In this document: piece after piece, positions 9,537-30,328 of the stretch
Layout: each line of letters opens with the position of its first letter
Position numbering within the stretch: the first letter of the stretch is position 1
Source: Thermoplasmatota archaeon
GTDB lineage: Archaea; Thermoplasmatota; Penumbrarchaeia; Penumbrarchaeales; EX4484-36
Length of the DNA: 64,000 nucleotides
Assembly (NCBI GenBank): GCA_029932465.1
Contig: JAOZQA010000004.1
Location: 7,980-71,979 of the forward strand
Direction: 5' to 3'
Translations under genes and position numbers: made by a program
Notes under the pieces: model-generated
What the model was told of the DNA's origin: nothing
What the model saw: the letters and a program-made list of their open reading frames with translations, nothing else
The model's database searches: none

Positions 9537-9548
9537 AGAAGAACACCT

Positions 9549-9846: not shown

Positions 9847-10053
9847 CTACCAGGAGAGCCTCTCCAGCTCCCTTTCCTTCTTTGTGGCCTTGCGGAACTT
9901 CTTATAATGGTCCCGGCAGAGGTGCACCCGCCTTCCGCTACCCTCAAGGGTGCCGAGCACACCCTCCGCCTTCTTTCGGGGTAAGGACCTCTCAGCGGGT
10001 TTACTGCACCCCGGGTACTGGCACACCTTCTCCTCTTTCCTTTGGGGGGGCAT
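9847..10053 (-). CDS. Small zinc-ribbon protein (hypothetical)
   Basis: 68 aa, basic, with C-x4-C ... H-x-C-x2-H spacing (CQYPGC ... HLCRDH). Confidence 0.4.
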   Translation of the reverse strand: MPPQRKEEKVCQYPGCSKPAERSLPRKKAEGVLGTLEGSGRRVHLCRDHYKKFRKATKKERELERLSW

Positions 10054-10062
10054 ACAATAACC

Positions 10063-10383: not shown

Positions 10384-10413
10384 TACAATATTTAAAACCT
10401 CTTTTCCGCCCCG

Positions 10414-11397: not shown

Positions 11398-11442
11398 GAA
11401 TGAAGAAAAAGGAGGGGGGTTTTAAATCTTATTATGAACCCC

Positions 11443-12558: not shown

Positions 12559-12592
12559 CTCATCATCTCAATTTTTAAGGCAACCGTGCGTC

Positions 12593-13207: not shown

Positions 13208-13812
13208 TTCTCTCCCCCTCCTCTCACAACGACCACTCTTGTCCCCCTCGGGAGCCTTCTTCTGTATTCATGGTCCTTCGCCAGTCTCTCGGCCACCTGG
13301 CCGATTATCTCTATCTCCCTTATGCGGACCTCCTCAACATCTATTCCCCATTTGGTGCACTCCTCCTTAAGAACCTCCATTATCTTTCTGTTCAGCTTAT
13401 GAACCTTCATAACAGCCTCCTCGGTCTCCATCCCGCCTACGATCGCCCTTGTGATGACTCCGGCAAATTTGTTAAGTGCAAGATGAGGGTCTTCAACTTC
13501 ATATTTTGCCTTCATCGGGTCGCTGACTCTGTAGCGAATCTTCACTGCCACCCTCACTGGGGTGTTATCCGTCAGAATACATTCACATTGCAAATCCTCT
13601 ATCGTTTTCTCCGTTGTGTCAATGAAATAGACCTTACTTATGAATGGAGCAACGAGATGGACCCCGGGGGGAAGAGTGCCTACTGGGTGGCCCAGTTTCT
13701 CGTATATTCCAACGTGACCCAGGGGCACTTTAACTATTGAAGAGGCGAGCATTATGAGAAGTACCAAAAGAAAAACTACAGACACTGTTAATAGGGCGGC
13801 GGAGAGGCTCAA
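13204..13812 (-). CDS. Short SPFH-domain paralog (N-terminal TM plus SPFH core)
   Basis: 202 aa. TM helix plus band-7 core (VKVPLGHVGIYEKLG...); overlaps the downstream SPFH gene by 4 nt. Confidence 0.65.
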   Translation of the reverse strand: MSLSAALLTVSVVFLLVLLIMLASSIVKVPLGHVGIYEKLGHPVGTLPPGVHLVAPFISKVYFIDTTEKTIEDLQCECILTDNTPVRVAVKIRYRVSDPMKAKYEVEDPHLALNKFAGVITRAIVGGMETEEAVMKVHKLNRKIMEVLKEECTKWGIDVEEVRIREIEIIGQVAERLAKDHEYRRRLPRGTRVVVVRGGGEN

Positions 13813-13821
13813 GGGCCCACC

Positions 13822-14370
13822 TCACTTCTTCTTCACACGGAGGTGTACACCCTCTCCCCCGACCACAACCACTTTGGTCCCCGGAGGTAAGGGTTCATCG
13901 GAGGTGGCGGCCCAGTCCTCCCCAGAAACTCTTACCCTCCCCTTTGTGGGATCATCAGGGTCGGTCTCTTTTATAACAATACCCTCCTTACCGATCATTG
14001 AATTTGTGGTGGGGGTAATTGTTGGTTCAGGCTTTCCAGCGATGATCTGGTAAAACTTGATTGTGAAGGCTGTGGAGGCCAGAAGGGCAACGATAACTAT
14101 TATGGGTGTGTATAAGCTGAGGAACATCGCCGGTGCAATCAGCCCGAAGACCCCCAAAATGATAAATATGGTGCCTGGGATTATAATAAAATATCCGGGA
14201 GTGGAGGCCTCAACGGCCACAAGAATGAGACCGAGTACCAAAAGGATTATGGAGACATAGTGGGGGTCAAAGGAACCAGAAGATGTGGTATTGTTGGTGG
14301 CCATAACCCATATCGAAAGAATCAGGGGGAAGAATCCGAAACCCTTCTTTGGGAGCATATCAATACCCAA
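13822..14370 (-). CDS. NfeD-like membrane protein (short form, C-terminal OB-fold, no protease domain)
   Basis: 182 aa. Multiple TM helices, then GRVRVSGEDWAATSDEPLPPGTKVVVVGGEGVHLRVKK (NfeD beta-barrel). It is the first gene of the nfeD-SPFH operon. Confidence 0.75.
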   Translation of the reverse strand: MGIDMLPKKGFGFFPLILSIWVMATNNTTSSGSFDPHYVSIILLVLGLILVAVEASTPGYFIIIPGTIFIILGVFGLIAPAMFLSLYTPIIVIVALLASTAFTIKFYQIIAGKPEPTITPTTNSMIGKEGIVIKETDPDDPTKGRVRVSGEDWAATSDEPLPPGTKVVVVGGEGVHLRVKKK

Positions 14371-14435
14371 TTAAGAGTATAACAATTGATTTATTTAAAC
14401 TCTCCTGAATAACCCCCCCAACGCATGGAAATTCC

Positions 14436-14460
14436 CAAAAGGGTTATTAATAGATGCTCA
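14436..14460 (+). promoter_or_regulatory. TATA-like element (TTATTAATA) about 30 nt upstream of the NMD3 ATG, in a divergent intergenic region shared with nfeD
   Basis: A/T-rich aaagggttattaatagatg at 14440..14458. Confidence 0.3.
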
Positions 14461-14482
14461 TACGGAGGAGCAGGTAACGAAA

Positions 14483-15523
14483 ATGACAGAAGAGAAAATA
14501 GAGCAAGGAACCTGCCTGAGGTGCGGCAGGGTGGCCACTCTGCACAGAGGCCTGTGCATAGACTGCTTCAGAAAAAGCTCCGAGATATTCACTATTCCCG
14601 ATTATATAGATTTAACCGTGTGCCGCTCCTGTGGAGCGCAGCTTAAGGGAAAGCACTGGGAATACGGTGGAGAACTGAAGGACATAATAGAGGACGAGAT
14701 CCACTCATCCCTGGAGGAGCTCTCCGGAGTTGAGGTGTCCTTGGAGGATATAGAGATGCGCAGGGGAGGGGAGGGTTTATATCACGTAGAGGTCAGGGCA
14801 GTGGCGCTCTTCCCCGGGGGTGGTGTGATACCCACCCGGAAGGCTTTGACGGTGAGGGTGAAGAGCTCTCTCTGTCCCCGTTGCAGCAGGATTCATGGCT
14901 CCTATTATGAGGCCATAATACAGGTTAGAGGCAGCGGAAAGGACCTCCTGAGGCAGGAAGAGGCGGTGGATAGGGTACTTGAACGGGTTGACCAGATAGC
15001 CCGGGGAGACCCCATGACCTTTGTCACCAAGCTAGTCAAGGTGAGGGGGGGGTGGGACATCTACGTTGGGAGGAACCAGAGTGCTCGCAGGATCGCCCAG
15101 GAGATGCACAGACTCTATGGGGGAGATTATAAGGTCTCCTCAAAGCTGGTCGGCAGACGGGAGGGGAGAGAGCTGAAACGTTTCACGTACCTCGTCAGGC
15201 TCCCTCCCTGGAGAAGGGGGGATTACCTCCTCAAAGACGGCACTCCTCACAGGATAGAGGGATTTCAGGGCAGGAGGGTAAAGCTAAAGAACATCGAGAC
15301 CCGGCGGGAGGAGAGCGTTGAGATATCCTCTGTTGAGACCCTTGCCCACTACCCCTCAAAGGAGGTTGAAATGGAGGCCACTGTTCTCTACACCAGTGAG
15401 CGAGAGATAGTAATAATGGATCCCGTGAGCTTCGCTGAGGTCAACATCAAAAAGCCCCCGGGGTGGAAGAGAAGAGAAAGCGTCAAAGTGGTTAGGGTAG
15501 ATGGGGGGATATATCTCCTTTAG
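14483..15523 (+). CDS. NMD3-family ribosomal large-subunit export/maturation factor homolog
   Basis: 346 aa. N-terminal zinc-binding CLRCGR...CIDCF...CRSCG...CPRCSR motifs typical of archaeal NMD3. Confidence 0.8.
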   Translation: MTEEKIEQGTCLRCGRVATLHRGLCIDCFRKSSEIFTIPDYIDLTVCRSCGAQLKGKHWEYGGELKDIIEDEIHSSLEELSGVEVSLEDIEMRRGGEGLYHVEVRAVALFPGGGVIPTRKALTVRVKSSLCPRCSRIHGSYYEAIIQVRGSGKDLLRQEEAVDRVLERVDQIARGDPMTFVTKLVKVRGGWDIYVGRNQSARRIAQEMHRLYGGDYKVSSKLVGRREGRELKRFTYLVRLPPWRRGDYLLKDGTPHRIEGFQGRRVKLKNIETRREESVEISSVETLAHYPSKEVEMEATVLYTSEREIVIMDPVSFAEVNIKKPPGWKRRESVKVVRVDGGIYLL

Positions 15524-16389
15524 ACGTAGACCCTGACCTCCGCCGTTATGATGTTCAATACCAAGGAGTCCACGGAGTCTATCCGTAGCGTTAGAAGCTC
15601 CTCTCCCCCCGAGGGGCTAGAGAGGGTGACGTTGTATTCGCTCTCCGTTAAGCCCTCTGCGGAGAGCTCATCCTCAAGATAGCTCACAACCGCAGAACCG
15701 TATCCCTCCGGGAAGGAGATGCTGACCAGAAGGGTCTGACCCCCTTCGAAGTCATAGGTTGTGTGGAAAGTGGTTACGGCCCTCACCTCTATGAGGGCGT
15801 TGGAAGAGGAGCCGTGAGTGGAGCTCTCCCCGTCGAAGGAAACCAGATTCACCTTCAGGGACCTGAGGGTTCCGCCCCCCGGGGCTGGACTGTGGGTGAG
15901 AAATACCTCGGGGGGCGCTTTGAGGACGAGAGAGTCTCCCTGCTTCATCACAATTGCCCCCTGCTGATAGAGCAGGCTGTAGTCCTCGATGTAGCCGTTG
16001 TCCGCGGTGTATAGAATATATCCCACGCCCCTGCCATAGATTGTGCTGCCAGTGGAGTCGGTGACCTCACACTGACCACTAGCGGTAATCACGTCCATGG
16101 AGCCCCACACTCTGCCGGTGCCAAAGAGGGCACCCCCAGGGCTGCCCATGGAGAATACTGAGGAGGAGACCGCTCCCTCAACGCCGAGGACGTTCTGCTC
16201 CTCTATTATGGACCTGAGATTATAAATCTGAGTTACGGTATCCTCCATGTGCCTGCTCTCCACATCCTTTCCCCATGCGGGAAGGTATATCTCCATGACT
16301 GTCCCTACCACTGAGAGGGTTATCGCCAGGAGCATTATGGAGGAGATGACGTTCGTCACGCCTTCATCTCGTCTTACAATCCGCTTCAT
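15520..16389 (-). CDS. Pilin-like protein with an archaeal class III (type IV prepilin-like) signal peptide
   Basis: 289 aa. N-terminus MKRIVRRDEG|VTNVISSIMLLAITLSVVGTVM: basic region, G-V-T cleavage context, then a hydrophobic helix. It is the last gene of the giant-adhesin operon. Confidence 0.65.
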   Translation of the reverse strand: MKRIVRRDEGVTNVISSIMLLAITLSVVGTVMEIYLPAWGKDVESRHMEDTVTQIYNLRSIIEEQNVLGVEGAVSSSVFSMGSPGGALFGTGRVWGSMDVITASGQCEVTDSTGSTIYGRGVGYILYTADNGYIEDYSLLYQQGAIVMKQGDSLVLKAPPEVFLTHSPAPGGGTLRSLKVNLVSFDGESSTHGSSSNALIEVRAVTTFHTTYDFEGGQTLLVSISFPEGYGSAVVSYLEDELSAEGLTESEYNVTLSSPSGGEELLTLRIDSVDSLVLNIITAEVRVYV

Positions 16390-16390
16390 C

Positions 16391-17290
16391 TTACAGCCTC
16401 CTCAGATCTATCTCGATCACGGTGAGGGAGATTCGGACCCCTGTGATGCTGGGCATTTCCATCTCAGCCCCAGTCCCACTGTCAGTGAAGAAGAACTCTC
16501 CTGGATTAGGGTTTGGGGTGGGGTCCACCTCCGCCATCCCTTGGGCCTCTGCCGATCTTTTAAGTTCAAGAAGGGCGAGTCTCCCTAAAGGGCTTCCGCT
16601 AACTAGTTTCAGGTCCCCAGAACCGAGTGTGACATCCTGGGCTGACTTCAATGTGATTGTGATAGAGGCTGTTGTGAATCCTTCCACCTTCTGAAAGTCT
16701 CCAGTCAATGTGACAATCTCCAAAATGAGCCAGGTCTCACCACCCCCGTACTCGATCCTCCACGAAGGCTCTTTCAACATTCCCGTCCCATAGGGATCCA
16801 GGTAGAAGACCCCCCCCGCAGCGTAGGAATAGGAGATGGGGGATGTATAACGGTAGTTAGCTGTGAGGTTCAGATATCCGGCGGATACGGCGTAATTGAC
16901 CTCGTTCAAGAAAATCTCTAGCACCTTCTCCTCCGGTGTAAGCTCTATGCTCCCCACAGCCCTACTTGTGGCTGTGGTGCTTCTTCCCCAGGTACCCAGC
17001 CTCACTGGGAAGCTCATAACATCCCCCTCTGTGCCGTATAGGGAGAGTGTGTCCACTGCTCCGGATATCCTGAGGGCGGTTTCTTCAAGGGAGGCCTGGT
17101 GTACCATCTCCTCCCTGAGGCCATAGTTCTTCCCTGCTACAATAAGGTAACCGCTTGCCACCATGAGGGCGGCGGTTAGGATGAATATTCCTGTGACCAC
17201 AGTGGAGACTCCGTCCACATTCCGCCTAGCACTTCTCAAAGCTCCACCCCCTGGGGGTCGCCATAGGTCTGCATCATTCTCTCCCACCAC
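16391..17290 (-). CDS. Pilin-like protein with an archaeal class III signal peptide
   Basis: 299 aa; contains RRNVDG|VSTVVTGIFILTAALMVASGYLIVAG. The annotated N-terminus overlaps the upstream giant gene by 55 nt, so the real start is probably a downstream alternative start codon. Confidence 0.55.
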   Translation of the reverse strand: MVGENDADLWRPPGGGALRSARRNVDGVSTVVTGIFILTAALMVASGYLIVAGKNYGLREEMVHQASLEETALRISGAVDTLSLYGTEGDVMSFPVRLGTWGRSTTATSRAVGSIELTPEEKVLEIFLNEVNYAVSAGYLNLTANYRYTSPISYSYAAGGVFYLDPYGTGMLKEPSWRIEYGGGETWLILEIVTLTGDFQKVEGFTTASITITLKSAQDVTLGSGDLKLVSGSPLGRLALLELKRSAEAQGMAEVDPTPNPNPGEFFFTDSGTGAEMEMPSITGVRISLTVIEIDLRRL

Positions 17291-20200
17291 TCAAGATAGA
17301 CGGTATCCCCGCAGCACTGCTCTGTGCCGGCATCCCTTGTACTTCCCTCCACACCGGTGAGGAGGGAGACACCATAGACAACTACATCGTCTATAAGAAC
17401 CCCCTTGATGTCGCTTGTGGGGTCCTCGTAGTGATTGTAGCCATCTTCATTTGTGGTGACTACCCTGAACCGGAGTAGGACTACGAACCCCCTCCAAGGG
17501 GTGAGGTCCACGCTCAGCCTGCTTAAAGTTGAGGCCTCAACCCATCCGTTTCCGGAGTCGATTCCCGTCATGCTCTTCCCTGACTCATTGTATTCGGAGC
17601 CCGAGACTCCCCAGCCCCACCTCACACCCAGGGTGATGGCAGTCCATGTGAGACCATTGTCAGCGGATACCTCAACCCTTACACAATCCGGTGGGGCTCC
17701 GGAGAGGCTGTTTATGTTAAACCTGGTGTAGAAAGAGAGGCGAGCCCACCTGGCGTTAGTTAGGTCTATAGGTCTTGTTATGAGGGAGTTGTCTATGCCG
17801 CTTTTAAGGTAATCGTCACCCCCCTCCCCATTATGGTTCCACCAGGCGTGGGTTCCGCTTCTAGACAGTTTTCCGATCTCCTCCCCTACAGCCTCGTAGA
17901 GCTCCCATTTGTCCGTTGCGGAAGCGTTTGCTGGGAGGGAATCAGACCTTGAAACCCTGATTTCAAGATCGTCTATCCACCAGCCGAAGCCTGTCCCCTG
18001 GCCATACTGCTTATAATAGAGCCGTACATATACCTCGTCCCTGGAGCTCTCGGGAACATACGGGAGCAGGTCCACCTTAGCAAACTCCCAGTCGAATGTC
18101 CCGGTTGAAGACTTTCCGTTCCAGCACCACAGGATTCTTCTTCCGAAATCGTCCCTCCAAATCACGGGCTGACCTTCGCTGTCTGTGAGAAGGAGGTTAC
18201 CGCTGTAAGATGTCAGAGGGGTGACATAGAGCCAGTCTATGTCAGAGGTGTTGTCAGGTCCGTCACCATCAGTGTCCACCCCCCTGAAACCCAACATGAC
18301 AACTCCTCCATTTTTGCCCGGCAGTATGTTATATTTATGCCAGAAGGTCAGATACGCGGAAGTGGAGCCAGAGATGGAGAAGGGACCCACTGTAAAGTAC
18401 TTGTCCTCGTTTCTCTCGAATGAACCGCCACCACTCCCACCGCCTCCAGTCATAAATGCCCAAAGGCCTCCCTCTGTGCTCCTACCGTTCACAATGTTCC
18501 TGGCGACCACCTTCCAGAAATATTCTGTATTCTCGTTCAGGGTGTAGGGTAAGCTGTAGTACTTCTCTGTAAGGCCAGAGGCTATGAGAGTCAGCGAGTC
18601 CTGCGAGAGGCCCAGGTAGACGTCATATCTTATATTCTCATTGTTGCCGCCCGGGTCATCACCACCACTCCATGAGAGGGTCAGGGTTGTGGGTACATCG
18701 AGCTCACCGTTTGGAGGATAGGGGTCCACTGGAGGTGTCGGGGCTTCCTCCCCCGGGGCGATCCTCTCTCCGGTGATTCTTATATCGTCTATATACCATC
18801 CCCTTTCCTTCACAGATTCATCCGAAGCGAAGTGGAACGCGATGTATATGTTGACCCCCTCGTAATCGGATGGGATGTTCACCGTGTATTGTCTCCACGT
18901 CCGGGCCCAGCTACTGGTTGAGCTGAATGCACCATCTCCGTTCTCATAGCACAGGGTATTATAGACAGAGGAGTCGCTTCTTATGGTATTGGGGTATCCT
19001 CCATCAGGGACCAGCTTGTGCCATGTCGAGCCATCGGTGGATATCTCCACGATCCCGCCGTCCCATCGGCTTTCTATATCATACCAAGCCCAGAAGGTGA
19101 GTGTGACCGAGGTGTACTGAAGAAGGCTTATCTGCGGGGAAACTAGTCTTACGTTTACCATGTTCCGATAGTTTTTACCGTCCCGAGTGCACCACGAATG
19201 GGAGGAAGAGTGAGACCTTTCGTCACCGATCTCCCATTCACTTGAGGGCTGACCCTGGATTGTCCATCCTATGTTTCCCCCCTCCACATCATCAGAGAAG
19301 ATGGTCTCTGTCTGTCTTGTATCCCCTCTTGTGTCCTCCTTAAAGGGGGAGGAACCTCCCCGGGTAACCTCCCCCCCGGAGACTATCTCCTCGGCTATCT
19401 CGCCGAAGACGTCTGAGAGGTGTGAGGGGTCATATACGTAGTAGTACTTGCCGTTGTTCTCACCACCCCCATTGGAGGAGTGTGCCAAGGCCCACAGGTC
19501 ATACTCAACCCTGTGGTATGAGCGCTCTGTGAGGACATCGTTCGTCTGCCAGTAGGTATTCCACGGGGGCGTGTCGCTATCTTCCTCCTCCGGATAATCC
19601 GGGTCATGATATCCGCTGGAGAGAAGCCCCACAGTGTAGATGGTAAAGGGGGCCATGAGAAGACCCTGACGATCTCCGGCACTGGTTCCAGCACTTGAAC
19701 TATAATAATAGTTCTCATAATATGTGTTCATCCACTGCCCCAGACTATTTGAGGGGTCCTCATAATCGTACCTTCCCGGACCGTATTCAAAATCCCTGTT
19801 GGCCTCACCATCTGTAAACACCAACATATATGGTATTCTCCCGGAGGGGGCAGGGTAAAGTTTACTGGCAGCGGCTCCCACAGTGTCGTAAAGAGGAGTC
19901 CACCCGTTGGCCCATAGTCCATCAATGGTATCGTTTAACGAGGCTTTGTTCTCTGACGTGCAGAAGGTCCAATCAACAAAGAGGTTTGGAGAGTTGGGTC
20001 CTTCGTTAGTGAAAGTATATATGGCGACTCTGTCGTAGGGCGTGAGGTAGCTTATGAACACCTTGGCCGCCTCCTTCAGGCGGTCTATCTTCCGCACCCC
20101 GCCCACTTCCCAGTCCATTGAACCAGAGGTGTCAAGAACCATGACGATATCTAGCGGGTTTCTTGATGTTCCCCCGGGGGGCTCATAGAGTCTGAAAGAC

Positions 20201-23200
20201 CTTGGATGGCTGTAGGAGGTGTTGGTATCCTCGCTCACCCCATAGGAGAGGTCCTCGTCCCAAGAGGATATTACATCGGTGTACGTCTCCATCTGTGGAT
20301 CGTAGAAGTCCAGGGGTGATTCCCCGTTGACCCTCGCCACTACGGATTCGTGGCGGAAATTGGCAGTGCCGTTCTCCATGTCATCGTAGAAGAAGTAGAT
20401 GTTGACGCTCTTTGACGGAGCGTTGTTTATGTAATCAAAAATCTCGTCGTAATTGTTGTAGAAGTCTATGAATACCCTCACCTGTCTTATCCCGGCGAAA
20501 AGAGGGGTCCATATGGCTTCTACGGTGACCTCGTCACCAGGCTCTAAGAACACCGTTGTGCTGTGTATGAGCTTTCTGCCGTCCATAAACCTGACAGTAC
20601 CCCCGCCGGGGACCCCTCCGTAGTTTCCTACGGTTAGAGATAGCACATAACTACCTCCCACTACCGGATGGGGATCGTCTATTGAGATGTCTATGTTCCT
20701 ACCGTAGAGTTCCGGCTGATAGATGACCACCCCAAACCAGTGGAGGAGGAAATAGAAGGCCTCGGTGCTTCTGTGTTCAAGGTATGGAAAGATGCCGGAG
20801 GGAAGAGAGAAGGAGAGATATGCCGTGTGGAAATAAGAAGGACCGGTATTCTCAAGATAGATCGCTACTGGGTCCTCGCCGTCAAGTGTGTCTGTATAGT
20901 AGAGGTAACCCGCTTCGTCTTCCTGAGGTGTGCCGTCTACACTGCCGGAGTCGTCAGGTCTCTTAATAAGTTCAAGTCCTGTTACGGTGGATGTGGGTAT
21001 GACTATCCCATGGGTCTTTACGTCATCTCCTGTGGTGCCGTACAGGGCTGTTCCTGCGTTCTCATTGCCGTAGCCAGCAAGGCCTATGTAATTGTAGAGG
21101 AACTCCCAGTTCACATCTCCATTCTGGTACATTGGATTGGGAGCGATCTCCGGAAGGATGTAATGTCCCACAAGCAGGAAGGCCTCGGAGTAGTTCCCCA
21201 TGTACTCAGACTCACGGTAATCTCCTTTGAGGTATCTCTCGATCTCTATCCTGTCCTCCGCGGTTATGGTCTCAATACCTGAGTAGCCACCACCACCGCT
21301 CTCCCCGCAATTCCAGATGACCATGTTGTATCTTTTCATCGTCTCAACGTCTGGTCCCGTCCCGATCTGGACGTTCTCCCCGTCGAAGACGTTCACAACC
21401 CTATACACCTCATATTGAAGGCCTAGGAGCTCAAGGAAGTGAACAATAGCCCCTGTTGTGTCCTCAAGCATGCCCCACTCAGGGGGCTCCGTGGCACCTC
21501 CGTCGAACCTCCAGTTGTTGGGGTTGTCCTCCTCATAGCCGTTCTCATCCCCATTGGGCCCATAGGTATCATTCCATGAGCCGTCGTCGTCTACGACGAG
21601 GATATTGTTCTGGGCCACCAGGGAGGTGACGGTGGAAGTGGAGTAGGAGATGTCGTTGTTTTCCTCGTTGATTTCCTGTATGATGTGATATGGGTCCACA
21701 ACAGCCCTGAAGGTGTGAAGTCCCACGCTGGTGGCCTTCCACTTTTTGGTAACTACTGTCTCCCCACCCCCTCCAGGAAGGTTCAGAATGTCTCTTGGGT
21801 TGTCCTCAGTAGGGTCCGGGAAATTGGGAGTGATTCTTCTCTCTATACCATCTGGGCCCGTAACGTAGAATTCCACAGAGGTGGAGAGTGTATCGGGCCC
21901 GTTGTTTCTCACGGTGACCCGCACCTCCACGGTGTCCATGAACTTTGGAGGATAGGAACCCTCAACGACCACAAGTTCCATCTTTGATATGGCCAGATCG
22001 TTCCCTATTCTCAGCTCCCAGCGGAACCACTTCATTATTCTCGCCGCCATACTGATTTTCTCGTTCAGATATCTCACGTGGGAGGGGCTCACCGGGAGGT
22101 AGACGGAGCGATAGGCGACCGTTTCACCGCCGGGTGTGGTCTCTTCGTGGGAGTGGTATATGCCATAGGGTTCTTTGACGGGAGCGTTGTAGTCCTGTAC
22201 ATACAGCATCCCCACGGGATCTGACGTGTCAGAGCCGTACTCCAGAGGATAAGTCCATTCGGCGTAGTCGTCGGCTCCTGCAGCGCTGTCATCCATCAGC
22301 ACCGAATAGGAGTCATTCCCTTCCCAGCCTGTTATGGGATTTGAGGGAGTCTCCCCGTAGATAACCCCGGGGAGGTCTTTGTCCACGGCGAAGCGCTTCA
22401 CACCCAGGTAGTTCCTTACGAATATCATAGCGTCCTCCCTTTCGGTGTTATACTTTACAAAAGAGGTAGTGTCTGGCAGAACGTAGTATCCGTTTTCGTC
22501 GGGGGAGATGCTCATGTAATCCTCGTTTAAGCCCTTCAGGACGTTCTCACCCACGATCCAGAGGTATCCTCCGTTGTCCAGGAACTTCATCATTTCCTCC
22601 ACATTCCCACCATATGTAGCGTCAGCGTTGCATGTTAGCGGATTCTCCTCTTTTCCGGTAACCCATATGACAATATCGTAATCCTTCATCTGGGGTGCTC
22701 CCACAGTGGGCGGGTCTACGTATTCGTAGGCGGGAACATCCCTCAGAACCCCTGCATCTGTCATAGCCTGAGCTATGAAGAGCCGGTCCACCTGGACCCC
22801 CGCACCAGTCAAGGATTCTACAACATGGCTGGTGACGTCGTTTTCACTACCGGTCTCCGCCCCGTCATCGTCAACAAGGAGTATGCGGGGTATGATCTGA
22901 AGCGTAAGGGAAGCGTAGTTGTCGGTGGGGTCGTCTCCCTCAAGGGCCCCCTCCTCCTCGCTGGAGAAGACGATTCTCTGAGGCGGAAGGGACTCTCCCC
23001 TCAGGTCATAAGGCAGAACTGTGTAATCCCCGGGGTTAGCGTCCACCGCCATATAGATGGTCAGAATCTTGTCAGGGTTTGCACTTCTAGCGGTGAAAGT
23101 CAGGGATATGGAGACCTGACCTGCCACGGGAATTATGAGGTGCCTTATTTTGCATGTGGGGAAGGTGTAATCGTTCCCGTCCAGATCCTGGCCGTAGAGC

Positions 23201-24435
23201 TCAGCCCACTTCACCTCCTTCCATATTTCATCCCTGTCCGTATTCCCGGGCATGAAATCTGGTGGAGGCGGCCCGGGGTTGAAGTTCTCATAATCCTCCT
23301 TATAATCATCATCCTCCGGGTCGGGGATGTCGTCTATCCAGTTGAAGATCTCACCACCCTCCGTGGTTATGGGCTCCGTGCTAACTACCAGCATCACGTC
23401 ATCGTCATACCCTATGGGTTGATCCCCGAGGTTTTTCACAAATAGAGTGACGGTGACCTCGTCTCCTGTCTTGGGGTAGGTCTTGGAGAGCTGGACATCC
23501 TTGGAGGAGACTACAGGGTTGGGGCCGGATGGCCTCGTTGGAACTATGCTTATTGAAACGTCGAGATTCCTGTAACGGTAGTTGTTGGAGGTTGATATCT
23601 CCCCGGATGTTAAAGGAGTGATCCTGCAGTGCATTTTGTGGATACCTAAGGGGTAGGGCACGGTCCAGCTTGGATAAATGTAGTTGATGGTTTCACCGTA
23701 GGTGAGCTCCCCCGGGGTTGGGTCATCCTCTGGGGTTTGCAGCACACCGTCTCCGACATAGCTCTCCCGGTCGTAGAACTGGACGGTTATGTTATCATGG
23801 GGTACGGGGGCCGTGCCCAGGTTGGTGACAGTAGCCACGAGGTCTAATGGTTCACCCACAAGGACCTCATCGGACCTCTGACCGTATCGCAGGAAGTAGA
23901 ACTCCTCCACGGCGAGGTCAGGAAGGGAGGTGGAGGGAGGCGCCTCCAGGGACTCTGAGAAGACCACAGTTTTCTCCCCGTTAGCCTTCTGGTAGACCAC
24001 CTTCACCTCCAAGGGGAAGGTGGGTGTGGGGGATATGATCTTGCTCCAGGTCTCCCCGGGGCTCCAGAGGTCGTTATCGTCCCAGGAGCCAATACCTGTG
24101 GTGGAATAGTCACAGTCAGAGGCGGAGAAGGGCGACCCAGGGACATCCGCCCCGCTGCCGTCCTTCACAATAATCGTTGTGCGTGAGAGGAGAAGAGAGT
24201 CCCCCGCATTGTTCTCTACAAAAAGGACGAACTGGCCAGAGGGGTCCGTGGTGTAGCCGGAGGAGAGGCTCACGTAGACGCTCTCAACCTCTTTCACGTT
24301 ACCCGCCATGAAGAGGGCAACGGAGGATACAAGCACCACCGCTATGCCGACAAGAAGTACGGTTCCTATGGTCTCAGAAACACCCCGCGTCTTATTTGAT
24401 CTTCTCATACCATTCGCCTCCTTATGAAGCTCCAC
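17236..24435 (-). CDS. Giant (2399 aa) secreted protein with a class III signal peptide, CARDB-like domains, two GATase1-like domains, a vWA domain, an FN3-like domain and three C-terminal lectin/MAM-like jelly-roll domains
   Basis: N-terminus RRSNKTRG|VSETIGTVLLVGIAVVLVSSVALFMAG. Two repeats bear the motif (R/N)ILLVDDDG...YD(I/M)VIW. vWA MIDAS sequence DIVMVLDTSGSM ... LVFTDGEANRD at nt 20156..20121. C-terminal repeats carry W(W/Y)IDD(L/I)(E/R)I motifs. Paralogous to 24422..30328. Confidence 0.85.
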   Translation of the reverse strand: MELHKEANGMRRSNKTRGVSETIGTVLLVGIAVVLVSSVALFMAGNVKEVESVYVSLSSGYTTDPSGQFVLFVENNAGDSLLLSRTTIIVKDGSGADVPGSPFSASDCDYSTTGIGSWDDNDLWSPGETWSKIISPTPTFPLEVKVVYQKANGEKTVVFSESLEAPPSTSLPDLAVEEFYFLRYGQRSDEVLVGEPLDLVATVTNLGTAPVPHDNITVQFYDRESYVGDGVLQTPEDDPTPGELTYGETINYIYPSWTVPYPLGIHKMHCRITPLTSGEISTSNNYRYRNLDVSISIVPTRPSGPNPVVSSKDVQLSKTYPKTGDEVTVTLFVKNLGDQPIGYDDDVMLVVSTEPITTEGGEIFNWIDDIPDPEDDDYKEDYENFNPGPPPPDFMPGNTDRDEIWKEVKWAELYGQDLDGNDYTFPTCKIRHLIIPVAGQVSISLTFTARSANPDKILTIYMAVDANPGDYTVLPYDLRGESLPPQRIVFSSEEEGALEGDDPTDNYASLTLQIIPRILLVDDDGAETGSENDVTSHVVESLTGAGVQVDRLFIAQAMTDAGVLRDVPAYEYVDPPTVGAPQMKDYDIVIWVTGKEENPLTCNADATYGGNVEEMMKFLDNGGYLWIVGENVLKGLNEDYMSISPDENGYYVLPDTTSFVKYNTEREDAMIFVRNYLGVKRFAVDKDLPGVIYGETPSNPITGWEGNDSYSVLMDDSAAGADDYAEWTYPLEYGSDTSDPVGMLYVQDYNAPVKEPYGIYHSHEETTPGGETVAYRSVYLPVSPSHVRYLNEKISMAARIMKWFRWELRIGNDLAISKMELVVVEGSYPPKFMDTVEVRVTVRNNGPDTLSTSVEFYVTGPDGIERRITPNFPDPTEDNPRDILNLPGGGGETVVTKKWKATSVGLHTFRAVVDPYHIIQEINEENNDISYSTSTVTSLVAQNNILVVDDDGSWNDTYGPNGDENGYEEDNPNNWRFDGGATEPPEWGMLEDTTGAIVHFLELLGLQYEVYRVVNVFDGENVQIGTGPDVETMKRYNMVIWNCGESGGGGYSGIETITAEDRIEIERYLKGDYRESEYMGNYSEAFLLVGHYILPEIAPNPMYQNGDVNWEFLYNYIGLAGYGNENAGTALYGTTGDDVKTHGIVIPTSTVTGLELIKRPDDSGSVDGTPQEDEAGYLYYTDTLDGEDPVAIYLENTGPSYFHTAYLSFSLPSGIFPYLEHRSTEAFYFLLHWFGVVIYQPELYGRNIDISIDDPHPVVGGSYVLSLTVGNYGGVPGGGTVRFMDGRKLIHSTTVFLEPGDEVTVEAIWTPLFAGIRQVRVFIDFYNNYDEIFDYINNAPSKSVNIYFFYDDMENGTANFRHESVVARVNGESPLDFYDPQMETYTDVISSWDEDLSYGVSEDTNTSYSHPRSFRLYEPPGGTSRNPLDIVMVLDTSGSMDWEVGGVRKIDRLKEAAKVFISYLTPYDRVAIYTFTNEGPNSPNLFVDWTFCTSENKASLNDTIDGLWANGWTPLYDTVGAAASKLYPAPSGRIPYMLVFTDGEANRDFEYGPGRYDYEDPSNSLGQWMNTYYENYYYSSSAGTSAGDRQGLLMAPFTIYTVGLLSSGYHDPDYPEEEDSDTPPWNTYWQTNDVLTERSYHRVEYDLWALAHSSNGGGENNGKYYYVYDPSHLSDVFGEIAEEIVSGGEVTRGGSSPFKEDTRGDTRQTETIFSDDVEGGNIGWTIQGQPSSEWEIGDERSHSSSHSWCTRDGKNYRNMVNVRLVSPQISLLQYTSVTLTFWAWYDIESRWDGGIVEISTDGSTWHKLVPDGGYPNTIRSDSSVYNTLCYENGDGAFSSTSSWARTWRQYTVNIPSDYEGVNIYIAFHFASDESVKERGWYIDDIRITGERIAPGEEAPTPPVDPYPPNGELDVPTTLTLSWSGGDDPGGNNENIRYDVYLGLSQDSLTLIASGLTEKYYSLPYTLNENTEYFWKVVARNIVNGRSTEGGLWAFMTGGGGSGGGSFERNEDKYFTVGPFSISGSTSAYLTFWHKYNILPGKNGGVVMLGFRGVDTDGDGPDNTSDIDWLYVTPLTSYSGNLLLTDSEGQPVIWRDDFGRRILWCWNGKSSTGTFDWEFAKVDLLPYVPESSRDEVYVRLYYKQYGQGTGFGWWIDDLEIRVSRSDSLPANASATDKWELYEAVGEEIGKLSRSGTHAWWNHNGEGGDDYLKSGIDNSLITRPIDLTNARWARLSFYTRFNINSLSGAPPDCVRVEVSADNGLTWTAITLGVRWGWGVSGSEYNESGKSMTGIDSGNGWVEASTLSRLSVDLTPWRGFVVLLRFRVVTTNEDGYNHYEDPTSDIKGVLIDDVVVYGVSLLTGVEGSTRDAGTEQCCGDTVYLEWWERMMQTYGDPQGVEL

Positions 24436-27400
24436 TTATTACAATATCATCCAGATAGACCCCTTTGAAGAGATCGGGGTCCTCATAATGGTCATATGGC
24501 TTGGGACCCACAAGGGGATAGCCGTTGGTCACCACCCTGAACCTTATATGGACGGTCTTTCCCCTATATGCGGTAAGGTCCCCCTGGAATCGGGTCAGCG
24601 TCTCTGAACTGACCCAATAATTGGCCTCCTCCGCAGTAAGGCCATCATCAGGGATTCCGGTATAGGACTTGCCATCGGCTATACCGTCGGAGAGGTCCCC
24701 CTCCGTTCCCGTTACACCCCATCCAATTCTCACACCATTGTGGAGGGTTCTGAAGCTCTTCCAGTTGTCTGTTGAGATCTCGACCCTCAGGCAGTCGGGC
24801 GGGAACCCAGAGTTGGAGTTTATGTTAAACCGTACGTAGAAGGTGAGACGAGCCCATTTAGCGCTCGTTAAGTCCACTGGCCTTAAATATAAAGCTGCAT
24901 CCGCCCCCGGTTTGAGCCCATAGGTGGGATCCACGAAGGACCAGAAGTGCGAACCGGAGTGAGCTATCACCTCATCCTCGGCCAGATACCACTGATCGGC
25001 TATGGCAGAGGTGGGGGGCTGTGTATCGGATCTGCTGATCCTCACCTCAACATCATCTATAAACCACCCCTCACCCACCCCCCACGTGACAGCCAGGTAG
25101 AGGAACATTATCTTAACATGGCTCCTGCCCCTGAATGGGGTGAGGTCAACGGTCACCCTCTCCCAGTCGTACCTTCCACCTGCGGATACACCGTTGTAGA
25201 CCCATCGCATCTCTCTTCCATAGTCATCGTATCTGTAAGACTCGAGATCCAGGTTTCCACTGTACTGCCCCTGAGGAATGACATATCTATAGCGCCATTC
25301 CGTCCCGTCGTCGGAGGTGCCCACCAGAACTACCCCACCGTTACTGCCCACATCCATCTGATATTTCTGGAAATAAACCAATCTAGCGCTGTTAGCCCCG
25401 AGAAGGGAGAACTCCTCTGTGATGATGTATCTATCCCCGGGCTCCACGCAGGCTGGAGCCCTTGTTCCTCCCCTGCTGTACTGTTCACTATCTGTGGGAG
25501 TCCCAGCGCCGGAGGATCTGGTCAATGTCTGAAGTTTCTTCAGCTCATACGCCACTGTATTGAAGACGCTGAGGAGGGAGTTCTCGTCGGGAGAATAGAA
25601 GTACTTGCCGCCCTGGGAGGTGGTAGCCATCCTCCACAGGTTGTACTCGACGGTTCCCGATTCCACCCCTCCAGTGTAATAGGCGTAGGTATTGATGCTC
25701 TTCTCGGCAGGCTTTGTAGATGTAGATGGGGAGTTGGGTGGGGAGTGATGCTCCAGATTGAGTCCAATGGTAAACACAGGAAGGGGTGCGTTCAGAAGAC
25801 CGTTTCTTGTTGTCGGCGAGGGGAAGGTAACGGTGTACCAGAAGCCATAGGATGAAGCGTCTCCTCCGTACTTCCCGAAATGGCTGGTGTAAGTCACCAC
25901 CTGGCCAAAGCTATGCCAGGGGCACCATCGTTTGCTACCCCTCTCCAGTGTGTTCAGATCGTTGTTATCGTCGGGTTCGGGGGGCTCGCTGTCGTCCCCC
26001 AGACGGTCCACCCCGTCGGAGAGGATAACCACCGCGGGCACGTGTCCGGCGGCGTGGCCGTAATAGGCATAGGAGATCCCCGCCCCCGACATATCCCAGA
26101 TCTGGGTTACCGCTTTAGGGGTCATGGAATCTATCTGGGAGTTTATGTAGGCCCTGCCACTTTCAGTGAGCTGTGTGAAGGAGACATTGTGGACATTCCC
26201 AGACCCTGCATACCACATGAGTGCAACCCTATCCTGGTCGGATAGCTGGGCTACCAGGGCCTTGGCAGCCACCTTGAGCTTTGCTATTGGGTCTCCTGAC
26301 ATTGAAGAGGAGGTGTCCATGCATATTACTACGTCAAGCGGGGGTGGCGGTTCCTGACCTGACCAGAACGAGAAGGAGGCGGAGTGTGAATAGCGGCTAG
26401 TGCTGTTAAAGCCGCTAGCCTCCGACCAATCCTTCACTATGTTGGTATATTGCTCCTGCGTCTCATCCAGGAACTCAAGTGCGTTCTCCCCGTTTATCCT
26501 GACTATTGTGGCTTCGTGCTCCCAACTGCTGGCATCGGTATCCTCCAGATCATCGAAGAAGAAATAGACGGGAACATTGATGAAGGGATTGTTATTCCCC
26601 TCGAAGACTTCCTCTACATCCTGGTAGTAGTCCGCCTTCACCATGATCACCCTCTGGCCAGCGAGGGTGGGAATCCAGGTGGTCTCAACGGTGGCCACTC
26701 CCCCGGGAGGAATGTATATTGTGTCTGTTTTAAGTATGAGGTCCCCGTCGTATAGTCTCACAACGAAGGAGCCACCGGCTCCGCCCAGATTGGCTACCAA
26801 CGTTTTAATAAGAAAAACATCCCCCAGCTGGTGGACAGTCCCCGACACATTGATGTCCACAGCCCTCGATACTATTTCAGGACTCTCCACAGTGAGGTTG
26901 AGGTCTCTGAAGAGCCCAAATAGCATCTCCACAATGCCGTCAGAGTTTGCTGTTCCTATCTGGAGAGGTATGCTTATCAGCTCGGCTAGGTAGCCCTGGT
27001 CTTCGGAGCTGTGAAGAATCCCTAAGGGGGTCTGCCCCGCCTCCCCTACCCCATAGAGGGTAGTGCTAACGCTCTCTTCCCCAAAAAGCGGATTCTCTGC
27101 TCTCTCCTCCACACCTTCCCCGTAGACCTCACGCAAAAATGTCCCCTCAAGTCCATGGAAGGGGAGTAGGTAGCTATCATCCGACGTTCCCGTGATGGTT
27201 GTGTAACCCGTCCTACCTGTGAACGTACCGACCCCCATGTGCCTATACAGGAAGGGGTCTGAGACCGACCCGGGGGCCCCCAAAATATCAGTGAAGAGAC
27301 ACCCGGAGATCACCACCAGTCTGGGAGTTACATTGGTAAGGTAGACGCTTTCCTCATAAGATTTCGTGAGGTACTGGATCAGGTAGTCTCTGTCGTCTGC

Positions 27401-30328
27401 CGTGAGGGTCTCAGGCAGGAGCGGATCTATCTCTTCCTCCGGGAGAACCCAGATGACCGAGGTGTATCTCATCAGGGTCTCTATGTCCGGGCCATCGCTG
27501 AAAAGATAGGCGGAGCCCGAATAGGTGTTCACAACCCTGTAGAGGTCGTATGAATAGCCGTAGAGCTCAAGCTGTTCTGCTATCTTATGGGTGAGGTCCT
27601 CCCGCAGGGCCGAGGGAGGTGGGGCAACTCCTCCTTCAAGGTCCCAGTTGGAAAAGGTCTCGTTCTCCTCCGAGTAGCTCTCATCATCGTCTATAAGTAG
27701 TATTCTCTTCTCGATCACGATTGAGGTTATTGTTGTTGGGGAGTAGGAGAGGTCATTATTGTTCTCGTTCACCTCCTGAAGTATCCTGAAGGGGTCTACC
27801 ACAGCTCTGAAAGTGATCCTGCCCTCTAAGGTGGCTCTCCATGTCTTTGTGCATATCTCCTCCCCTCCGTTCCCCGGGAGGTTAACTATGTCCTGTGGAT
27901 TGTCCACCCCATCGGGATATCTGGAGGGGATTCTCCTCTCGATGTTGTCCTCTCCTATTACGTAGAATATCACCGTTGTGGATACAGCCGTGGGGCCGTT
28001 GTTTCTCACCCATACGCGTATGAGGATATCATCCATGTACTTGGGGGTCTCAACACCCTCGGGCAACTCGATCTCCATCCTTACTATAGCCAGATCATCT
28101 CCTATCTCTATTTCCCAGCCGAACCATTTGAGAACGCTAGCGGCCAGATTAATTCTTTCGTTGAGATAAGTAATAGTTGTATAGTCGAAGAAGCTCCATA
28201 GGATCCTGTAGAAGGGGGTCTCCACCCCCGCCTCTATATAGGTGGAGTCCTCGCCTGCAGGAAGGTCATATGTGAGTCTTCCTGCGGGTAATACTCCATT
28301 GGGAAAATCCCCCTCGTCTCGGTACCCCACTTCGCTGAAAGTGATCTCCTCGTCGGAGGAGAAATTCAGATTCATAAGTCCCTTCTCCGGGTCAGTGACG
28401 TTATCGCCTCTAACCCCGTAATAACGGTCTGCCACCGAAGCGTCAAGATATACACTCTTTAGGTAGGTATAATCGTAAAGGAGCTCCTTCATACCTGCGT
28501 CCACGGTTCCAACGGGAGTGTAACTGCTAAGGTCTAGTATAGAATTATCAAAGGCTCCCTCAAGCACACCCCTTCCAATTATCCATATCTTCTGGTCATT
28601 GTTGAGACAAGCTTCTATGTCAGCAAGGTTGTGGTAGAGCACTGGAGAGGGATTTTCTCCAGCGATCCATATAATAACGTCATACTCTTCTAGGGCGGGA
28701 ACAGGCACTTCGGTGGGCGAGGGGTAATTGAACTTGGGAGCCCATATATATGTCTCCTCTCCCAGAAGCCTTACCTGGGAGGCCACAAAGATTATATCGG
28801 GGGTAATGCCCGCCCCGGAGAGAGCCTCCACAATAATAGTAGTTCTATCGTCGGAGGACCCTGTTGAGGCCCCGTCGTCATCCACAACAAGTATTTTGGG
28901 CGTCACCTGGATGTTTATAAGGTTCAGGTTGTCCTCATCCTTATCCCCGTCAAGGAAAGTGTAGACTTCTTCCGGCGGGGTCCCCAGCTGATCTACTGGC
29001 TGAACGGTGTAGTTGCGCTGGTCGCAATCCACCGCGAAGTAGATGGGAACAATATTGCTTCCCTCAAAGAGCTCTGCCACCCATCGGAACTGGAAAGCGA
29101 TCTTTCCGGAGGCGGGGATCGCAAAATTTCTTATCTTTACTGTTGGGAAGGTGGTATCGTTTCCGTACAGGGATTGCCCGTGAGAGGAGGCCCAATCCTG
29201 AGGGTCCACACCTTCGGGGACCTCCGGGACATCGTCTATCCAGGATAACACTTTCCTGTTCTCTCCCAGATTTAGCTGCTTTATGGGGTACAAGGACATT
29301 ACAAAAAGGAGATGGTGAGATGGTAGAACTGGGGAGGGTCCAAGGTTTTTCACGTAGACCGTTATGGTCACCTCTTCCCCTCTTTTCGGATACCTGTTGC
29401 TGAAAAATATGTCGTCTATTGAGACCGCAGGATTCGGGCCCTGGCCGGGGGAGAAGTACTGCTGTATTGTCACATTGAATTGGTAGGTTCTTTCATTGTT
29501 ATACAGACGTGCCTCCCCTTCAAAGGGCGGCAGGACCCTTGCCAGGAGGGTATGGCTTCCCAGAACGGACGTGGTGAATGACCTTTTCACTAAGGTAATA
29601 CTATGCCCTGGAAGTAGCTGTTCGGGAGGTGTGCCTACAACACCATCTCCGTCTTCGGTGGCTTCCGCAATGGGCATCTTACGGATCAGATTTCCGTCAA
29701 GGTAGAGAAATATCTGCAAGGTGGAGGTCTGAACGGGTACGCCGCCGTTGTTTGAGATAACCATGTATATATCGGCAATGCTATCTTTGACCAGCAATGT
29801 TAGCCTCCTCCCATAGCGCTGAAGGTAGAGGTCCTCCACGGAGAGATCGGCTTTAGTTGCGGATTTAGGTTCCACCATATTGGTGTATCTGTAGAGCACA
29901 CGTCCCCCCCCCTCTCCGGTGTTAAGAACCCTAACATCCACCTTTTCAGCCCCGGGAGGCAGTGATGTCATGCTGTGAGAGTAAGTCTCTCCTATCTCCC
30001 AGAGACTGTCCCCATCCCATACGCCTATTCGCGAGATTAGATATTCGCAATCAGTCCCCTCAAATACATCTCTGGTACCTTCAGTGCTCACTATTATCTG
30101 GATCTTTCCCAAGGGGAGGGGTTTGCCAGCTATATGTGTGATCGTTATGTATTTTACCCCACCGATCTCCACCACCTCTGAGCTGAACCTTTCTATCTCG
30201 AGGACTTCCTTTGTGGGGTGATTGGTGACAAAGATCAAAATGGCTGCACCTGCTATGGTGGATGAAAGTAGCAGAAGTATGGTGCCAAGGGCTTCCGATA
30301 CACCCCAGAATGATACGGACGTGCGCAT
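24422..30328 (-). CDS. Giant (1968 aa) secreted protein with a class III-like signal peptide, CARDB-like domains, two GATase1-like domains, a vWA domain and C-terminal lectin/MAM-like domains (paralog of 17236..24435)
   Basis: N-terminus MRTSVSFWG|VSEALGTILLLLSSTIAGAAILIFV. Repeats PKILVVDDDG...YDVIIWIAG and KRILLIDDDESY...YTSVIWVL. vWA sequence LDVVICMDTSSSMSGD at nt 26338..26300. C-terminal GWFIDDVEVRISRSD and YLDDIVISG. Overlaps the downstream giant gene by 14 nt. Confidence 0.85.
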   Translation of the reverse strand: MRTSVSFWGVSEALGTILLLLSSTIAGAAILIFVTNHPTKEVLEIERFSSEVVEIGGVKYITITHIAGKPLPLGKIQIIVSTEGTRDVFEGTDCEYLISRIGVWDGDSLWEIGETYSHSMTSLPPGAEKVDVRVLNTGEGGGRVLYRYTNMVEPKSATKADLSVEDLYLQRYGRRLTLLVKDSIADIYMVISNNGGVPVQTSTLQIFLYLDGNLIRKMPIAEATEDGDGVVGTPPEQLLPGHSITLVKRSFTTSVLGSHTLLARVLPPFEGEARLYNNERTYQFNVTIQQYFSPGQGPNPAVSIDDIFFSNRYPKRGEEVTITVYVKNLGPSPVLPSHHLLFVMSLYPIKQLNLGENRKVLSWIDDVPEVPEGVDPQDWASSHGQSLYGNDTTFPTVKIRNFAIPASGKIAFQFRWVAELFEGSNIVPIYFAVDCDQRNYTVQPVDQLGTPPEEVYTFLDGDKDEDNLNLINIQVTPKILVVDDDGASTGSSDDRTTIIVEALSGAGITPDIIFVASQVRLLGEETYIWAPKFNYPSPTEVPVPALEEYDVIIWIAGENPSPVLYHNLADIEACLNNDQKIWIIGRGVLEGAFDNSILDLSSYTPVGTVDAGMKELLYDYTYLKSVYLDASVADRYYGVRGDNVTDPEKGLMNLNFSSDEEITFSEVGYRDEGDFPNGVLPAGRLTYDLPAGEDSTYIEAGVETPFYRILWSFFDYTTITYLNERINLAASVLKWFGWEIEIGDDLAIVRMEIELPEGVETPKYMDDILIRVWVRNNGPTAVSTTVIFYVIGEDNIERRIPSRYPDGVDNPQDIVNLPGNGGEEICTKTWRATLEGRITFRAVVDPFRILQEVNENNNDLSYSPTTITSIVIEKRILLIDDDESYSEENETFSNWDLEGGVAPPPSALREDLTHKIAEQLELYGYSYDLYRVVNTYSGSAYLFSDGPDIETLMRYTSVIWVLPEEEIDPLLPETLTADDRDYLIQYLTKSYEESVYLTNVTPRLVVISGCLFTDILGAPGSVSDPFLYRHMGVGTFTGRTGYTTITGTSDDSYLLPFHGLEGTFLREVYGEGVEERAENPLFGEESVSTTLYGVGEAGQTPLGILHSSEDQGYLAELISIPLQIGTANSDGIVEMLFGLFRDLNLTVESPEIVSRAVDINVSGTVHQLGDVFLIKTLVANLGGAGGSFVVRLYDGDLILKTDTIYIPPGGVATVETTWIPTLAGQRVIMVKADYYQDVEEVFEGNNNPFINVPVYFFFDDLEDTDASSWEHEATIVRINGENALEFLDETQEQYTNIVKDWSEASGFNSTSRYSHSASFSFWSGQEPPPPLDVVICMDTSSSMSGDPIAKLKVAAKALVAQLSDQDRVALMWYAGSGNVHNVSFTQLTESGRAYINSQIDSMTPKAVTQIWDMSGAGISYAYYGHAAGHVPAVVILSDGVDRLGDDSEPPEPDDNNDLNTLERGSKRWCPWHSFGQVVTYTSHFGKYGGDASSYGFWYTVTFPSPTTRNGLLNAPLPVFTIGLNLEHHSPPNSPSTSTKPAEKSINTYAYYTGGVESGTVEYNLWRMATTSQGGKYFYSPDENSLLSVFNTVAYELKKLQTLTRSSGAGTPTDSEQYSRGGTRAPACVEPGDRYIITEEFSLLGANSARLVYFQKYQMDVGSNGGVVLVGTSDDGTEWRYRYVIPQGQYSGNLDLESYRYDDYGREMRWVYNGVSAGGRYDWERVTVDLTPFRGRSHVKIMFLYLAVTWGVGEGWFIDDVEVRISRSDTQPPTSAIADQWYLAEDEVIAHSGSHFWSFVDPTYGLKPGADAALYLRPVDLTSAKWARLTFYVRFNINSNSGFPPDCLRVEISTDNWKSFRTLHNGVRIGWGVTGTEGDLSDGIADGKSYTGIPDDGLTAEEANYWVSSETLTRFQGDLTAYRGKTVHIRFRVVTNGYPLVGPKPYDHYEDPDLFKGVYLDDIVISGAS

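Follow-up and report, generated by a model that had tools for sequence, protein, structure and literature searches.

Paired class I glutamine amidotransferase-like modules in giant pilin-like proteins of a Thermoplasmatota archaeon

Two giant pilin-like proteins encoded in a 64-kb stretch of Thermoplasmatota DNA (the whole stretch that was analyzed, hereafter the window) each contain 2 copies of a module that, judged from structure models, is a member of the class I glutamine amidotransferase (GATase)-like superfamily and lies on its non-enzymatic side. Taken as a whole, the evidence is best explained if these modules are non-catalytic scaffold or docking units of giant modular pilin-like surface proteins, a reading that we consider probable. 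The fold, non-catalytic GATase1-like modules and bacterial modular pilins are already known; what is new is a sequence family without a model, its tandem use, and its presence in archaeal pilin-like proteins of 2000–2800 amino acids (aa) that are conserved in Thermoplasmatota.

Results

Two giant pilin-like proteins carry the modules

Both carrier proteins are encoded on the minus strand. Protein A (17236..24435; 2399 aa according to the open reading frame list and its translation) likely starts at the ATG at 24408 (M10), which directly precedes a class III signal-peptide-like sequence (MRRSNKTRG/VSETIGTVLLVGIAVVL in the translation). Protein B (24422..30328; 1968 aa) is paralogous to A and shares its order of domains, and its translated N-terminus also resembles a class III signal peptide (FWG/VSEALGTILLL). 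In BLASTP the 2 proteins were 30% identical over approximately 1900 aa and 42% identical in their C-terminal 376 residues. Pfam searches detected Pilin_N (PF07790; threshold 25.2 bits) in A with 36.5 bits, together with CARDB, VWA, and InhA-like MAM domains; in B, CARDB and VWA were detected, and Pilin_N (20.4 bits) and MAM (14.5 bits) scored below the cut-off. Taking Pilin_N above threshold plus a basic leader, a G/A cleavage site and a hydrophobic helix as the marks of an archaeal type IV pilin-like protein, A was recognized by its Pilin_N score and B by its N-terminal motif. The VWA domain of A (19765..20151, minus strand, aa 1429–1557) was matched by both Pfam VWA and VWA_2 and that of B (26006..26335, minus strand, aa 1332–1441) by Pfam VWA with an E-value of 4.2e-9, and the translations of both keep the DxSxS of the MIDAS (LDTSGSM in A, MDTSSSM in B). 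Neither Pfam nor NCBIfam detected a glycosidase or any other enzyme domain in A or B.

Directly downstream of the giants lie 2 small pilin-like proteins of 299 aa (16391..17290, minus strand) and 289 aa (15520..16389, minus strand), both with class III signal-peptide-like N-termini, which brings the number of pilin-like genes in a row to 4. Homologues of the 289-aa protein were found downstream of giants in 11 related loci, and this gene recurs as a neighbor in other Thermoplasmatota metagenome-assembled genomes (MAGs), as do an upstream gene for a J-domain membrane protein and NMD3. Many related loci also encode the giants in tandem, with 2 or 3 per locus. No genes for a pilus ATPase, platform protein or prepilin peptidase were found within the 64-kb window; there is thus no support for incorporation into a filament, and the giants may equally well be simply anchored in the membrane.

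Each giant protein contains 2 modules of approximately 280–305 residues

The modules start with a strand of the general form (I/L)(L/V)(V/I)DDD, which is followed by a Y(D/N/T)xVIW strand. In A these motifs are LLVDDDG at aa 519 (nt 22881) and YDIVIW at aa 586 in the first copy, and LVVDDDG at aa 946 (nt 21600) and YNMVIW at aa 1036 in the second. In B they are LVVDDDG at aa 480 (nt 28891) and YDVIIW at aa 549, and LLIDDDE at aa 877 (nt 27700) followed by YTSVIW. The 2 copies per giant protein that had been predicted from these motifs are thus present where they were placed. When the window was scanned in 6 frames with the pattern [ILVM][ILV][ILV][DE]DD[GDENS], 4 occurrences were obtained, and all of them are module starts.

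The original prediction gave the module a length of 120–160 aa. This proved too short: the full unit is approximately 280–305 aa long, is flanked by CARDB Ig-like domains, and closes with a strand and a helix, the latter finishing with a W-F motif shortly before the next CARDB domain. Because the units run to this W-F motif, the spans first proposed in A (aa 515–640 and 943–1100) cover their N-terminal halves. All 4 modules are on the minus strand. Module A1 (22000..22905, aa 511–812, DDD at 22864..22872), which is GATase1-like or ThuA-like and non-catalytic, is separated by a CARDB Ig-like domain (21652..21936, minus strand, aa 834–928, Pfam E-value 2.6e-14) from module A2 (20707..21624, aa 938–1243, DDD at 21583..21591), which has larger loop insertions. 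Module B1 (28097..28915, aa 472–744, DDD at 28874..28882) is the positional orthologue of A1; the 2 are 30% identical over their full length, and B1 matched positions 1–258 of the 258 in the iterated module HMM with an E-value of 1e-53. Module B2 (26882..27724, aa 869–1149, DDD at 27683..27691) is the positional orthologue of A2, to which it is approximately 34% identical pairwise and 28% identical in a 38-row alignment. The C-terminal half of B2 is divergent: the module HMM covered B2 at positions 2–155 (E-value 1e-20) and matched this half weakly, and the C-terminal boundary of B2 was inferred from the A2/B2 alignment.

A third motif, GG(Y/K)LWI(V/I)G, had also been proposed. It is clear in A1 (GGYLWIVG) and recognizable in degenerate form in B1 (DQKIWIIG), whereas the second copies show it more weakly (FLLVGH, LVVISG). 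Across the family its consensus is LWLIGQ, and the family-specific signature comprises VDDD, IWxTG, LWLIGQ, and WF.

The 2 copies are homologous and their duplication is old

Comparing A or B with itself by BLASTP revealed no internal repeat, and profiles were required to relate the 2 copies. Profiles built from 2 sequences gave in hhalign just a collinear local match of 30 columns (probability 89%). When 71 first-position modules were compared with 71 second-position modules, the hhalign probability was 99.9% with an E-value of 4e-34 over 235 columns, and the match spanned positions 1–295 of the first profile and 1–298 of the second. HMMs built exclusively from first copies also matched the second-copy position in distant relatives (P0036, P0042, and P0045), and those built exclusively from second copies matched the first-copy position in others (P0018, P0024, and P0061). 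Going by these profile comparisons, both copies are true homologues and their recurrence is not due to chance. First and second copies are approximately 19–22% identical, which is below the identity between A1 and B1 (30%) and between A2 and B2 (about 28–34%). This indicates that the internal duplication is older than the gene duplication that produced A and B, and that it predates the spread of the family in Thermoplasmatota.

The family is conserved in Thermoplasmatota and reaches other surface proteins

A word-indexed protein search returned 1 match with a single module and 6 with an alignment of 83 sequences, and the family was recovered by an exhaustive search of cluster representatives and a scan of genome contigs. 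The HMMER search, which covered 1.84 billion cluster representatives, identified 166 proteins with E-values of 1e-3 or below, 109 of them at 1e-10 or below. Exactly 2 modules are present in 96 of the 119 module-bearing representatives, and the carrier architecture was found in more than 100 clusters. Scanning GTDB genomes produced 34 loci, approximately 29 of them from Thermoplasmatota and often with tandem giants; almost every locus recovered from genomes belongs to a Thermoplasmatota MAG. The closest match is a locus of a Thermoplasmata MAG with 75% identity (L001), and a fragment from a second Thermoplasmata MAG is 97% identical. In 3 of the 4 distant representatives scanned, the domain order was Pilin_N, CARDB, module, CARDB, module, CARDB, VWA, and a MAM-like domain (Pilin_N, CARDB, VWA, and MAM detected in P0036, P0020, and P0073; Pilin_N and CARDB only in P0017). 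Pilin_N scored 28–53 bits in distant relatives, and the C-termini of the distant representatives vary (LamG, Big_5).

The module was also found, in single or multiple copies, in giants of Nanobdellati and other uncultured archaea (L030, L031), in 4 copies in a 4806-aa surface protein of an uncultured bacterium (L032), in a Chloroflexi RHS-like protein (L033), and in a Paenibacillus subtilase (L034). In addition, 4 short bacterial proteins (P0152, P0153, P0155, and P0156) consist of the module, a FlgD-Ig domain and a T9SS C-terminal sorting domain. All of these proteins are secreted or at the surface, which fits a generic extracytoplasmic module with a structural or binding role.

Structure models place the module in the class I GATase-like superfamily

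AlphaFold2 models were produced from a 50-row alignment for A1 (pLDDT 90.6, pTM 0.91) and a 38-row alignment for A2 (pLDDT 80.7, pTM 0.85), and the order of β-strands and α-helices (β-α-β) is identical in both. The models have a three-layer α/β architecture with a central sheet of mostly parallel strands, and their structural similarity to several unrelated superfamily members is significant. The nearest structures are ThuA-like proteins, the GATase1-like protein 3rht, GH42-type "domain B", and the GIFT domain of IFT52 and OST48. Scores, given in pairs, were 15.0 / 14.5 for 4jqs (ThuA-like), 14.2 / 14.3 for 2gk3 (STM3548), 13.7 / 14.5 for 3rht, 14.1 / 15.1 for 7vkw (GATase1-like accessory domain), 13.7 / 14.4 for 5gsm (glycosidase accessory domain), 12.9 / 13.4 for 5fms (IFT52 GIFT domain), 11.8 / 12.1 for 6s7o_G (OST48), and 12.3 / 12.3 for 1t0b (ThuA). 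In Foldseek the best match was the N-terminal domain of IFT52 (E-value 5.9e-5), with GATases next.

In Pfam and NCBIfam, no model reached its threshold on the modules of the window or on the family consensus sequences. ThuA (PF06283; threshold 33.4 bits) did not match the modules of the window even at an E-value of 10; it scored below threshold in 7 of 50 family members, gave sub-threshold E-values of 4.6e-4 (the best, 20.9 bits) and 6.9e-3 in 2 bacterial homologues, and reached 12–14 bits on the consensus sequences. DUF4159 (PF13709; threshold 25.9 bits) likewise matched 7 of 50 members below its threshold (best E-value 4.7e-4) and scored 15.8 bits against the first-copy consensus, and ABC_transp_aux (PF09822; threshold 34.7 bits) scored 12.1–13.5 bits over the first ~90 profile positions only. 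Altogether, ABC_transp_aux, ThuA, DUF4159, and DUF2194 score 12–16 bits against the family consensus sequences, and these weak signals from several families all hint at one clan. Searching PDB sequences with single modules and with a 50-sequence profile returned nothing meaningful. The sole match, a GH88 chain with an E-value of 0.025, was taken as chance.

Since no curated threshold was reached and the PDB profile search was empty, the modules form a separate family within the superfamily that has not been modelled. The original prediction of a class I GATase-like or GldG-type fold is therefore borne out at the level of the superfamily by the models, and not at the level of ABC_transp_aux membership, which the scores do not support. 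The family is divergent and lacks a Pfam or NCBIfam model, and Gene3D and SUPERFAMILY may already flag these segments.

No catalytic triad is conserved in the modules

The positions conserved across 292 distinct aligned modules are, in A1 numbering, L519, V521, D522, D523, D524, P568, Y586, W591, T593, G594, D611, G629, F672, G694, and W803. Of these, the DDD, W and TG motifs are almost invariant and could represent more than turns at the ends of strands, namely a real active or binding site. We regard the main live alternative to a pure scaffold as possible though doubtful: the modules would be ligand-binding domains in which the conserved acidic VDDD loop and the ends of the IWxTG and LIG(Q/E) strands form a pocket for a cation (Ca2+/Mg2+) or a glycan, located where amidotransferases bind glutamine, and would contribute directly to adhesion. 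These 3 strand ends are strongly conserved. However, homologous strand-end motifs of true GATases (such as xDNYDSF, SPGPG, and GxCxG) serve in part a structural purpose, and a pocket is therefore not proven by conservation by itself. Some homologues have also lost the DDD motif and carry LLVVGES (L033) or LLVRDAH (L030) instead.

In GATases, the nucleophilic Cys is placed at a strand-to-helix elbow. In the A1 model the corresponding elbow lies between a strand (E114–119) and a helix (H122–131) in the DSSP string, and the residue that follows the conserved G629 is Q, E, S, T or N, the elbow having been placed from topology and column statistics. The maximum frequencies in any column of the 292 modules were 11% for Cys, 30% for His, 36% for Ser, and 25% for Glu. 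None of these 4 residues is conserved in any column, so a catalytic triad is absent, as had been expected for a structural role; likewise, the Cys nucleophile at the elbow and the His-Glu pair that define a catalytic class I GATase were not found, the elbow residue being variable under the topology-based assignment. This makes it very unlikely that the modules are active surface enzymes, be it an amidotransferase, a glutaminase or another hydrolase of the DJ-1/PfpI/GATase1 type. The branch to which the nearest structures belong is also non-catalytic (ThuA-like, GIFT, and GH42 domain B), and the modules lie in an extracellular setting that offers no synthase domain as a partner. Finally, a different Rossmann-like fold (CheY-like receiver, VWA-like or caspase/C25-like) or low-complexity linkers with convergent motifs, either of which would have overturned the original prediction, deserves hardly any credence and is essentially refuted already.

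Discussion

The non-catalytic scaffold or docking reading can be compared with several known systems. ThuA-like, DUF1355, and DUF4159-type proteins (4jqs, 1t0b, 4e5v, 2gk3, and 3rht) share 9–14% identity with the modules, but the archaeal modules are 50–90 residues longer owing to inserted β-hairpins and loops and, unlike these free-standing proteins, sit twice inside extracellular proteins of 2000 aa. The accessory domains of carbohydrate-active enzymes (GH42 domain B, GH164, GH35-like 5gsm, 7vkw, Agd3, and PelA) flank a TIM barrel or a deacetylase, whereas A and B have no enzyme domain. The GH42 domain B serves trimerisation. GIFT domains (GldG, IFT52, and OST48/WBP1) occur in other contexts, namely as an ABC transporter accessory, in intraflagellar transport and in the ER oligosaccharyltransferase. 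They are non-catalytic and have been proposed to be sugar binders or docking platforms (PMC7226087). From these fold analogies (the GH42 domain in trimerisation; IFT52 and OST48 as docking platforms) and the domain context, we infer a scaffold, docking or binding role for the modules.

Bacterial modular pilins that present VWA or lectin modules are an established concept (PMC8179133). As in PilB (VWA module) and PilC (lectin module) of Streptococcus sanguinis, the carriers combine a VWA domain with a MIDAS and concanavalin/LamG-like modules (PMC8179133). The survey of bacterial modular pilins was based on the bacterial IPR012902 motif, and its largest case has 860 aa (PMC8179133). The archaeal giants differ from these proteins in having the archaeal Pilin_N, a length of 2000–2800 aa, at least 10 domains, and GATase1-like modules; they also lack assembly genes nearby, and their incorporation into filaments is putative. 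Our literature searches brought up no account of GATase1-like modules in giant pilin-like proteins of archaea. The modules are covered by no Pfam or NCBIfam model, and public annotations of such carriers read "VWA domain-containing", "CARDB domain-containing" or "hypothetical", which agrees with the earlier suggestion that this architecture had not been recognized.

We propose that the class III signal peptide and the hydrophobic N-terminal helix of the carriers would anchor them in the membrane or insert them into a filament resembling a type IV pilus. The helix would be followed by the Ig-like spacers, the VWA domain with its intact MIDAS, and jelly rolls of the MAM/LamG type, so that the VWA and jelly-roll modules of this giant adhesin would bind ligands and the 2 dead amidotransferase domains would act as rigid scaffold or docking units between the Ig-like spacers. 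The modules may also have a binding partner, be it a protein, a glycan or a cation, and the candidate site would be the conserved crevice that VDDD, IWxTG, and LIG(Q/E) form at the ends of strands. A more elaborate possibility, which we consider improbable, is a binding device not described before: the paired modules would bind a cation or glycan in this crevice, those of A and B would dock onto each other, and the giants, the conserved upstream J-domain membrane protein and the 2 small pilin-like proteins would make up a Thermoplasmatota-specific heteromeric structure, either an adhesive tip or an envelope scaffold.

The analysis does not reveal a new mechanism, and its use lies in annotation and in the choice of constructs for studies of archaeal adhesion. 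It assigns a fold to approximately 600 formerly unassigned residues in each of 2 proteins of 2000 aa, the carriers being conserved across uncultured Thermoplasmatota. The domain family that it defines is missed by Pfam and NCBIfam, and further members of this family are present in bacterial T9SS cargo, in a subtilase and in giant surface proteins. With it, the idea of the modular pilin would be carried over to archaea, and to an extreme size.

Start of giant A and the VWA domains of the giants

With its GTG start as listed, giant A, the 2399-aa pilin-like protein, overlaps the stop codon of its 1968-aa paralogue giant B (24422..24424) by 14 nt (window 24406..24435). The ATG at 24408 (M10 of giant A), which immediately precedes the signal-peptide-like sequence, is the more plausible start and would place the two genes 13 nt apart. 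In the VWA domains of giants A and B (19765..20151 and 26006..26335, respectively, minus strand), the DxSxS MIDAS motif is intact (LDTSGSM in A, MDTSSSM in B), which suggests that these domains bind a ligand in a metal-dependent manner, as does the VWA module of the bacterial modular pilin PilB from Streptococcus sanguinis.

Proteins encoded next to the giants

Downstream of giant A, on the same minus strand, two small proteins of 299 and 289 aa (15520..17290) have N-termini that resemble class III signal peptides (RNVDG/VSTVVTGIFIL in the first, RRDEG/VTNVISSIMLL in the second). Homologues of the 289-aa protein, which matches DUF7289 weakly, were detected downstream of giants in 11 loci. [quoted passage not shown] A gene for a 920-aa membrane J-protein (30403..33165, minus strand) lies directly upstream of giant B. 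Its N-terminal end consists of a hydrophobic segment followed by a long, presumably extracellular Ig-like/Big_3-type region, and a single transmembrane helix (around amino acid 750) and an acidic linker then lead to a DnaJ J-domain at the C-terminus (PF00226, E 1e-19). In 10 related Thermoplasmatota loci, the end with the J-domain is conserved upstream of the genes for the giants, and such linkage of a membrane-spanning J-protein to a surface-protein cluster is unusual.

The giants and their module in other genomes

In Thermoplasmata archaeon bin983 (CP070629.1, 2916..20736), three giant ORFs of 1850, 1946 and 2018 aa lie in a row, at least two of them with two copies of the GATase1-like module each, and thus the array of giant paralogues can expand beyond two. 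Bacteria likewise use the module as a repeat unit, since a 4806-aa protein of an uncultured bacterium (CAZUFC010000031.1, ORF at about 3857..18274) combines Kelch-like repeats with four module copies interspersed with Fn3-like repeat blocks. Four short bacterial metagenome proteins (P0152, P0153, P0155 and P0156; 360–475 aa) pair a single module with a Por_Secre_tail domain for T9SS sorting, and all except P0153 additionally have a FlgD-Ig domain. These would be handy minimal constructs for probing what the module binds.

Other large surface or secreted proteins in the window

A 1001-aa surface-type protein (34928..37933, minus strand) contains CarboxypepD_reg, three PKD domains and one CARDB domain, and no GATase1-like modules. 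In the 1575-aa protein encoded at 376..5103 (plus strand), a complete Peptidase_C25 domain of the gingipain type (E 2.8e-72) is accompanied by PKD domains and by the propeptide and Ig-like domain of the C25 family, and the protein is predicted from these matches to be a large secreted archaeal cysteine protease. Because the window encodes both this protease and an OPT oligopeptide transporter (58017..60125), its gene content suggests a peptide-scavenging lifestyle.
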